NCBI GenBank assembly: GCA_044892505.1
Contig: CM097883.1
Span: forward strand, 393,886,001-393,950,000
Direction of reading: 5' to 3'
Origin: Schmidtea nova
Taxonomy: Eukaryota
Length of the DNA: 64,000 nucleotides
Under the pieces are notes generated by a model. It had not been told where the DNA came from. It searched no databases and worked only from the letters and a program-made list of their open reading frames with translations. Below are positions 42,228 to 43,674 of this stretch, piece after piece. A program made the translations under genes and the position numbers. Each line of letters begins with the position of its first letter. Positions within the stretch are counted from its first letter, which is position 1.

Positions 42228-43674
42228 TTAGTTCATTTTGATTTCCAGCCACTCTGCTCCATTTCGATATCTGATAATTGTTGCTTCTTTTTCATACACC
42301 ACCCCGTTTATGGTCAGTGTTTCCCCAACGTCAACATTGGATGCTGAAGCTTTCCTTTTGCGATCCTCCTTTCGTTCCATTGGGCCATATTCCATCGATA
42401 ATTGGATTCTTGTCAATTTTGTGGATTCCATCCATTCCAAATTCTCTTCAATCTCCTCCAAATACATTTCAGTTGCCCATTTCAGCTTTTGATTACTCAT
42501 TTCTGTTCTTGTATCTATTTCGTCCACTTCCAAGTTTATCTCATCTACGATTATTATCGTTCTTTCTGCGCTGGGAATTTCGGATATCGATTCCATATGT
42601 TGCCTAGTTTTATACTCTTGTAACGAATACTTTTTTGATGGCCCTATCTTAAGCATTGATATATCGTCGATCCAAAGGTTTTCTAGTCCCAAATATATCT
42701 TCCGAATGCTTTTGACGTCCTCTACAGCTGAGTGAATACCCATCTGCATCTCTTCTCCATAGAGTTCCTTCATTATGGTTTTGAGCTTATACCATTCTCC
42801 TCTTCTTGTTAGTCCTTTCAATTGCAACGCTTGAGCAGTAGCTAGATCCCGTATGCCATAAAGATGATTACCCATATCCCTAGGAATTGTAACTCTGCAT
42901 GTAGGTCATGTCTTACTAGTATTTTCCCGCTTGTCAGTTTTTGGATTTCCATCATTTCTTCGTACTGGTCCTTTTGGTTTCGGCTCGCCACCTCCGTTAT
43001 CCCATGGATGTTTAATTAAAATGTTTGAGTCTTCTTCTGGGTGTTAAGAAAACATTTTTCACTAGTTTCCCGTGATAATTCATAATGGCCACCGCCAAGG
43101 GAATCATCTTTCCAGTCATGCTGGTTCCATATTCGGCATCAATGAACAATACTCTGTTCCGAATTTCTTCTATATTCATTTTCTTCCGAATAAACGACAA
43201 ATTTTTTTTTAACATTTCCTTTGTTATTTGTAGGAGTTCAGGATTTTCTTTCTGCATGGGCTCCTCGCTGGGTACATCATCAATTTCGTTTTTGATCCTT
43301 GTTTCCACTACAATTGTGGCATCCTCGTTTGCTGTTCGTAATATTTTTCCGATTGCTGGCTCCTTGATTTTCCATGATGAAAGTTTTTTGATCTCCCACC
43401 ATATTTGATCATTTTCGCCGAGAATTTCCACCGTCCCTTTGATTACGTGGATATAGTATTCCTCTTTATTTGATATTTTTAGTTCCTTTGTCATTTGAAA
43501 TTTTGATTTTCTGTCGATAGTGAATACTTGGACTTTCATTTTTCTGTCGTCCAACCTTAGATAATTTGGGATTTGCAAATTGTTGACTATCTGGAATCTT
43601 CTTTGGCCGGCATGATTTCTCATCATCTTCAGATAACTGTCGTACGTTTCTCTGGCCCATTGTATCTGCTCCAT
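42228..43674 (-). pseudogene. DEDDh 3'-5' exonuclease (REX4/ISG20-like) with ~170-aa N-terminal extension, copy 1
   Basis: ExoI VLFIDAEY...AVAIMNYHGKLVKNVFLTP, then HGITE, ExoII GKILVRHDLHAELQFL, IRDL and ExoIII GIHSAVEDVKSIRKIY. Frameshifts near 43010 and 42875. Confidence 0.85.

Follow-up and report, generated by a model that had tools for sequence, protein, structure and literature searches.

Burro-like elements swell planarian genomes; they remain active alongside the strong PIWI pathway of somatic stem cells. In the part of PMC6431247 that deals with them, Burro/GYPSM1 elements are giant Gypsy retrotransposons with a polyprotein ordered gag, CCHC knuckles, Bcl-2-like region, env, protease (PR), reverse transcriptase (RT), RNase H (RH), and integrase (IN); their env is a mononegavirus-like fusion glycoprotein, their accessory ORFs are separate, and they carry apoptosis regulators. 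The gag-env-pol order is known in Platyhelminthes, Nematoda, and Bryozoa (a passage of PMC13524379). In rotifers, the Juno and Vesta LTR elements and Terminons encode a DEDDy exonuclease, ORF3, in which DEDD has changed to DEED (sections of PMC5408684, PMC5718144, and PMC6338049). Further reference points are coronavirus ExoN, which is DEEDh (a passage of PMC10553922), and Maelstrom, EXD1, and Exuperantia, which are DEDD folds without catalysis that bind RNA (a section of PMC5408684).

We analysed a 64,000-nt stretch of the Schmidtea nova genome (the window) that contains an LTR element carrying a 3′-5′ exonuclease-like gene, ORF2. The element and associated features are, in window coordinates:

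48781..49639, minus strand: 5′ LTR (TG...CA)
48759..48776, minus strand: primer-binding site, which we take to be of the tRNA-Trp type
47718..48409, minus strand: gag remnant (PF03732); this copy has lost the zinc knuckles and the Bcl-2-like region by deletion
45825..47717, minus strand: env, a class III-type fusion glycoprotein with stops (PF24664)
45036..45509, minus strand: protease, continuing into the first part of the following domain; a deletion at ~45050 has removed RT, RNase H, and integrase
44074..45056, minus strand: C-terminal part of ORF1, which ends in a transmembrane-like stretch and matches no family
42228..43674, minus strand: ORF2, comprising a predicted cupin-like domain, a DEDDh nuclease, and an acidic tail, with two frameshifts in this copy
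40911..42213, minus strand: mariner-type transposon directly behind ORF2 (PF01359), a gap in the match to sister copies
38070..38085, minus strand: polypurine tract
37242..38069, minus strand: 3′ LTR, its terminal bases cut by another inserted LTR element
28131..29535, minus strand: another ORF2 copy, badly decayed, belonging to a sister family

The two LTRs are 95% alike and enclose ORF2, as an earlier note on this DNA had stated. The element is a Burro-like Gypsy, and the window copy of it is broken: pol is deleted, and ORF2 has frameshifts near 43013 and near 42869, because of which its exonuclease motifs are spread across three frames. Sister copies contain 2.5 kb more after gag and 3.2 kb more after protease. 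Protein analyses used naturally unbroken ORF2 copies.

Almost all of the window is mobile DNA, except a CRAL-TRIO exon at 54080-54619. It includes hAT/BED-finger transposase remnants (10443-11938, 15229-18940, 24753-26475, and 56950-60628); a Polinton/Maverick-like fragment on the minus strand at 60755-63772, with double jelly-roll-like and integrase-chromo ORFs, similar to fragments beside several other loci; and another element, whose ORFs are unassigned and which is present twice (5138-8229 and 33897-37242; the copies are 68-84% alike), one copy sitting at the extreme end of the 3′ LTR of the ORF2 element. The 3′ internal region of the ORF2 element (38100-40800) contains long (AAT)n/(ATT)n runs that differ between copies.

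Judged by its sequence, the host element of ORF2 is a compact, Burro-like, envelope-bearing Gypsy. In particular, one natural copy has a single 3401-aa ORF1 frame, with ORF2 400 nt downstream, that encodes in order gag, zinc knuckles, a Bcl-2-like region, env, protease, RT, RNase H, integrase, and a transmembrane-ended tail. Env (PF24664, E 1e-82) lies ahead of protease within this frame, and the Bcl-2-like region before env is a weak match (PF00452, E 9e-4; 20.2 bits, below the 31.4 cut-off); Pfam searches of the 3401-aa ORF1 gave no matches to BIR, MATH, or ankyrin. Elements of this type are 16.1-17.9 kb long and have the hallmarks of Ty3/Gypsy, namely LTRs, a primer-binding site, a polypurine tract, PR-RT-RH-IN order, and, in natural copies, 4-bp target-site duplications. 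The 375-aa domain of ORF1 after integrase (44074-45056 in the window) has N-glycosylation-like motifs, a transmembrane-like end, and no Pfam family, and would be a second membrane protein besides env.

The ORF2 family is large. With the window ORF2 DNA as query, its own genome (1.25 Gb) gave at least 41 matches at 94-100% (best 40 of 604 candidates scored), and an unbroken 483-codon frame is present in 9 of 30 fetched sister loci; with a distant relative as query, the same search gave at least 133 scored matches among 2150 candidates. In total, there are well over a hundred copies in at least six families, including one that is catalytically dead; the other frames are about 483, 515, 500, 493, and 467-469 codons long. 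Matching an exact 20-nt pattern retrieved only 16 copies, all from a single subtype, and is unfit as a copy count. Of 12 copies examined together with their flanks, 11 have ORF2 behind pol, and one has it between paired LTRs with no pol; LTR pairs, 99.2-99.9% alike, were found in seven of the 12. The ORF1 tail is upstream on the same strand at 84 of 88 loci with a nuclease match (89 loci examined, some places fetched twice).

Individual copies vary in structure. A 10.2-kb non-autonomous element (L118-L120; G000:C1:508.27-508.29 Mb) has LTRs 99.7% alike, an unbroken ORF2, and a different gag-like ORF, and is without env or pol. In another copy (L124-L126; G000:C1:92.18 Mb), with LTRs 99.5% alike, a deletion has joined the integrase core, in frame, to mid-ORF2, creating a 2633-codon frame. 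The '500' family has an A-run of variable length before the start.

The three exonuclease motifs read in the earlier note, including the unusual ExoII Glu, are present on the minus strand in the window copy of ORF2, beside the N-terminal domain:

43288..43674, minus strand: N-terminal domain, predicted to be a cupin-like beta-barrel, in which Y, P-N, H, S/T, and E are conserved (from the model and conservation)
43140-43132, minus strand: ExoI, D-A-E (D-x-E), read from the window sequence
42910-42893, minus strand: ExoII, H-D-L-H-A-E, with Glu (42895-42893) in the place of ISG20 Asp94
42734-42717, minus strand: ExoIII, H-S-A-V-E-D, read from the window sequence

The reading of H.LHAEL in both window copies holds for this one; the second copy has its ExoII stretch in a shifted frame. 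Neither the window ORF2 fragments nor two unbroken copies gave a Pfam match, and PF00929 matches were obtained on ORF2 relatives; family assignment rests on PDB matches, relatives, and fold. Specifically, an unbroken copy compared with 177,635 PDB sequences matched ISG20L2 (E 1e-7) and ISG20 (E 3e-6), in an alignment that sets the element Glu at the ISG20 ExoII Asp. A structure model built from a 7-row alignment is confident for residues 11-130 and 161-340 and not for the tail, which is variable and has basic KRK stretches. The modelled nuclease matches ISG20 (1wlj; Z 19.0, rmsd 2.2, 159 aligned; Foldseek E 2e-9) ahead of Pan2 (Z 15.5), DnaQ (14.9), SDN1 (14.7), Exuperantia (5l80, 11.0), RNase D (1yt3, 10.4), and SARS-CoV-2 ExoN (10.0). 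PDB, Foldseek, and structure matches agree with the REX4/ISG20 assignment of the earlier note: as modelled, the ORF2 nuclease has an ISG20/REX4-type DEDDh fold of the RNase H-like DnaQ superfamily, with REX4/ISG20 as nearest subfamily by both sequence and fold.

The N-terminal extension, described earlier as about 170 aa and beta-rich, comprises a domain of about 130 aa and a 40-aa linker. The domain is predicted to be a double-stranded beta-helix of cupin-like type. It has pLDDT 72-88 in the full model, where it matches 2i45 (Z 9.8, rmsd 2.9, 94 aligned); in a weak model of the domain alone (pLDDT 53), cupins fill the match list, with Z 5.5-8.5 to cupins and cNMP-binding folds. The Y, P-N, H, S/T, and E positions are kept in 37-44 of 47 rows, in live and dead forms alike. 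At the cupin metal site, one His is present in 42 of 47 rows and one Glu/Asp in 43 of 47, a pattern that differs from the canonical His-His-Glu-His.

A profile built from six relatives at 28-34% retrieved 58 clusters with E of 1e-30 or lower. A quick tree of the best 150 relatives and our own rows (140 rows kept, 19 short or weak rows dropped) separates 69 element-type rows from 71 cellular REX4-like rows (branch 0.67, SH-aLRT 99), and a careful, unrooted tree of 56 chosen rows gives the same split at 100/100 with a branch of 0.86. "Element-type" is a label by likeness, the setting being established for the S. nova genome and metagenome loci only. The host REX4-like gene, which has an intron, canonical D-E-D-H-D, and 51-56% likeness to cellular relatives, falls among cellular REX4, and the element protein gave no tblastn match to it at E 0.01. 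A clade of the host gene and the element family is not rejected (p-AU 0.47), and the tree therefore does not name the donor.

Of the 69 element-type rows, 45 are intact, 18 degenerate and without the catalytic set, and six cut short. The intact relatives have 26 Glu and 19 Asp at ExoII, compared with Asp in 63 of 63 cellular relatives; the likeness to DEEDh nidovirus ExoN drawn in the earlier note is thus likely incidental, because DEEDh is not fixed in the family. The D-C-E-M and D-Y-R-T signatures of cellular REX4/ISG20 are lost in the element family, and a DnaQ-like H-G motif is present in 33 of 45 intact relatives. The equivalents of ISG20 Met14 and Arg53, which are ribose-reading residues (a passage of PMC12452223), are kept by 58 and 61, respectively, of the 63 cellular relatives and by one each of the 45 intact element-type relatives; given this loss, the substrate may be RNA, DNA, or both.

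A metagenome search gave 22 loci, 12 of which are in the family and come from two assemblies; the other 10 match the nuclease part only, and those read are cellular REX4. The two loci long enough to show context (L150 and L153) have PR-RT-RH-IN, with RT 60% alike, followed by dead and live ORF2 copies in tandem; L150 also has ankyrin-like repeats, recognised by eye. At the place of the ORF1 C-terminal domain, both have a second protease-like region and longer tails. None of 49 candidates for ORF2 relatives in viral contigs proved to be one, and atlas feature searches gave only scores under 0.9.

ORF2 is a genuine element gene under purifying selection, both between and within families. Between families (14 pairs), the nuclease is 53-74% identical, with pS 0.71-0.87 (synonymous sites saturated) and dN 0.17-0.44, compared with dN 0.034-0.096 for RT-RNase H between the same families; D-E-E-H-D, with Glu in place of the second Asp, is kept in all five live families (six family representatives). 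Within three families (29, 19, and 28 distinct copies), variants confined to one copy behave almost neutrally (pN/pS 0.69-0.75), and those shared between copies have been purged (0.21-0.29); for shared variants in the nuclease part, pN/pS is 0.17 and 0.12 in the two well-counted families and 0.55, on three variants, in the third. ORF2 changes 4-6 times faster than RT-RNase H. Accessory, host-facing genes change fast; the fast change of ORF2 could also reflect loose constraint.

The case that the earlier note had set against an element gene was a processed pseudogene of host REXO4, confined to one insertion and free of selection; we found many copies and purifying selection. Recent capture in this form is refuted by copy number, number of families, selection, and placement of the host gene. 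That ORF2 is such a passenger in any sense is extremely improbable: an ancient origin from the host lineage REX4 is not rejected (AU p 0.47), against which stand at least 133 scored matches, six or more families, selection, an extra domain absent from REX4, and the existence of a distinct host gene, which has an intron and groups with cellular REX4.

By its sequences, a sixth family, recently active, has a catalytically dead version of ORF2 only, under purifying selection. With the dead paralog as query, its own genome gave at least 87 scored matches, the majority carrying a frame of 716 codons. We examined three copies together with their surroundings; each is a gag-env-pol element (RT 55% alike) in which pol is directly followed by this frame. 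LTR pairs in two of the three are 99.9 and 99.4% alike, and in an uninterrupted 15-kb copy the frame is the sole ORF2-like gene. The catalytic places read A-H-F-L-D, and dN/dS (10 pairs, five copies) is 0.03-0.16 for the nuclease-like part and 0.08-0.30 for the N-terminal domain, whose cupin-like motif is kept in live and dead forms alike. Catalysis thus appears, from these sequences, to be dispensable in some lineages and the fold not. In one dead-family copy (L192-L196; G000:C1:138.93 Mb), the ORF2 frame starts right after the ORF1 stop in the same frame, which makes read-through possible; an adjoining further gag-env-pol family carries another degenerate ORF2.

The dispensability of catalysis argues against proofreading and would favour a nucleic-acid-binding counter-defence protein. 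Proofreading for reverse transcriptase, in the manner of nsp14 ExoN for the coronavirus polymerase, had been suggested in the earlier note; it would suit DEEDh in all five live families, large elements of 16-18 kb, and a possible DNA preference. It is weakened because a recently active family, of similar size and thriving, is dead-only, and we regard it as quite unlikely: ExoII Glu is variable (26 E, 19 D), the fold is nearer ISG20 (Z 19.0) than ExoN (Z 10.0), a non-autonomous copy without RT retains ORF2, and the RT to which ORF2 would have to bind evolves far more slowly than ORF2. Silencing evasion, the other branch of that suggestion, appears the better one on our analysis. The selected dead versions are also left unexplained if ORF2 is an ISG20-like antiviral nuclease that guards the cell, and hence the element, from rival retroelements or RNA viruses. 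This is very unlikely, the enzyme needing in addition to spare its own RNA, even though ISG20 is antiviral (a passage of PMC12452223) and several related families share the S. nova genome.

Candidate expression signals lie upstream of ORF2:

43880..43949, minus strand: candidate internal promoter, with a reverse CCAAT box (TTGATTGG) and a TATA-like box ~60 nt downstream
43681..43796, minus strand: candidate 5′-UTR intron (GT...TTTYAG just before ATG), in four of five families
43723-43772, minus strand: conserved 50-nt hairpin inside the candidate intron, with equivalents in four families

The promoter proposed in the earlier note stands as a candidate whose boxes are conserved across families. 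Among 57 distinct upstream regions from three families, TTGATTGG is present in 49 and the TATA-like box in 46, the latter being unclear in the 493 family; in the window, the boxes lie at 43942-43949 (CCAAT-like) and 43880-43886 (TATA-like). ORF2 is likely expressed from this putative promoter of its own. At the candidate intron, contigs from four sequencing runs of unrecorded kind contained no splice joint, a result that speaks neither for nor against splicing. The hairpin has z -2.1 to -5.7, and, in eight related rows only, 6 of 16 pairs changed on both sides and 91% of cells are paired, compared with 25-45% in slid controls; an Rfam search gave nothing near gathering score. The hairpin could be a regulatory or self-target element.

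We favour, with a probability of roughly 45%, the reading that ORF2 is a counter-defence accessory protein of the Burro-like Gypsy that attaches to single-stranded or hairpin nucleic acid at its free 3′ ends. The reading starts from the anatomy, the position behind pol, the fold, selection, and the live and dead forms, and extends to expression, substrate, and target pathway, for which we infer the following. A long-standing accessory gene, joining a predicted cupin-like domain to an ISG20/REX4-type nuclease fold, would act on the ends of element RNA, small guide RNAs, or stray cDNA; a protein with an intact active site would trim these 3′ ends, and one with a dead site would shield them or act as a decoy.

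Consistent with counter-defence, ORF2 is a separate ORF behind pol, outside the polyprotein, with conserved CCAAT/TATA-like boxes; its live and dead forms are under selection; it changes fast compared with RT; and the same polyprotein has a weakly matched Bcl-2-like region. ISG20 can bind a stem-loop tightly without cutting (a passage of PMC12452223), and PIWI holds down Burro elements (a section of PMC8532177), both of which we count in favour. Against counter-defence, live families could supply the activity in trans to dead ones, keeping a catalytic role in replication possible; the loss of the Met14 and Arg53 equivalents leaves an RNA substrate not assured; and selection at the level of single lineages fits a cis-acting or packaged protein more easily than a diffusible suppressor. 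A bolder form of the reading, which we hold as possible but doubtful, is that ORF2 is transcribed independently and is dedicated to suppressing the nucleic-acid defence of the host. It would derive from a captured ISG20/REX4 nuclease and a cupin; its live forms would degrade piRNAs or by-products of the element, its dead forms would cap these or sequester them, and the cupin Ser-His-Glu cluster would be a second functional site. If true, this would be the first case in an animal of a retrotransposon that encodes a nuclease/pseudo-nuclease pair directed at small-RNA silencing.

Lineage-level selection is also what a replication helper would show, that is, a protein that works in or beside the particle on the 3′ ends of element RNA, tRNA primer, or cDNA, which it trims, with dead versions serving as scaffolds or relying on live ones in trans. 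The lost RNA-preference residues and the DnaQ-like H-G in 33 of 45 would fit a DNA-capable enzyme, and the same role has been proposed for rotifer ORF3 (a section of PMC5408684). We nonetheless consider it rather unlikely, since the recently active family is dead-only and ORF2, being outside ORF1, has no evident route into the particle. In addition, most LTR elements replicate without a 3′-5′ exonuclease. Dead versions would suit, too, a dominant decoy that mimics or blocks REXO4, ISG20L2, or AEN (rRNA processing, nucleolar stress, apoptosis) and keeps the cell alive alongside the Bcl-2-like domain. Such host-cell manipulation, with which the closest folds (ISG20 and ISG20L2), the Burro apoptosis regulators (PMC6431247, in the part cited above), and the KRK stretches of the ORF2 tail are in keeping, is unlikely: ORF2 is far from cellular REX4 (branch 0.86) and has lost C-E-M and Y-R-T, and would be a poor mimic.

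Counter-defence, as favoured here, would make ORF2 a small, soluble, separately encoded candidate for how Burro-like elements persist despite PIWI. Natural live, dead, Asp, and Glu forms exist, and the question is therefore testable by in vitro assay and RNAi.

Compared with known systems, the ORF2 element shares with Burro the polyprotein order, with env in frame between gag and pol. Burro elements exceed 30 kb and have BIR, MATH, and ankyrin domains, whereas the ORF2 element is 16-18 kb without those domains; we therefore call it Burro-like, not Burro, likening it by described anatomy. Neither an exonuclease nor a cupin is named among Burro ORFs in the PMC6431247 section on Burro, and the word "exonuclease" is absent from the main text of PMC13524379, PMC8532177, and PMC10309623. 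In the literature searched, we found no DEDDh or cupin-nuclease ORF in LTR elements; supplements of the original Burro paper, or Repbase, may annotate it. The ORF2 family would thus be a sizeable, apparently undescribed DEDDh-cupin group, with cupin-nuclease as a predicted new domain architecture, in a setting in which exonuclease ORFs of LTR elements are already known.

Among cellular proteins, ISG20, ISG20L2, REXO4, and AEN are the best sequence and fold match to ORF2, with the same motif spacing; unlike cellular ISG20/REXO4, ORF2 forms a separate clade, has lost Met14/Arg53, often has Glu at ExoII, has an extra N-terminal domain, is mobile, and is intronless in its coding part. Among viral enzymes, nsp14 ExoN is a virus-encoded DEDDh fold with a superfamily likeness only to ORF2 (Z 10.0, compared with 19.0 for ISG20), and zinc fingers and a methyltransferase of nsp14 type were not seen in ORF2. 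The arenavirus NP exonuclease, another virus-encoded DEDDh-fold nuclease, is absent among the 50 structure matches listed. Maelstrom, EXD1, and Exuperantia are host proteins of other subfamilies and an analogy only to dead ORF2.

The closest parallel within LTR elements is rotifer ORF3, in view of which the earlier claim that such nucleases are not a standard LTR-element gene was overstated, even though the rotifer ORFs are DEDDy (a section of PMC5408684). As described in the sections cited, rotifer ORF3 is, like ORF2, a 3′-5′ exonuclease behind pol with DEED; it is RNase D-like DEDDy, whereas ORF2 is REX4/ISG20-like DEDDh, with His, not Tyr, in ExoIII. ORF2 has a cupin-like domain, clear purifying selection, and dead versions, whereas no within-genome purifying selection was seen for rotifer ORF3 in the part of PMC5408684 that addresses it. 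ORF2 would represent a second, independent capture of a 3′-5′ exonuclease by LTR elements, DEDDh in the planarian and DEDDy in rotifers, both drifting to DEED.
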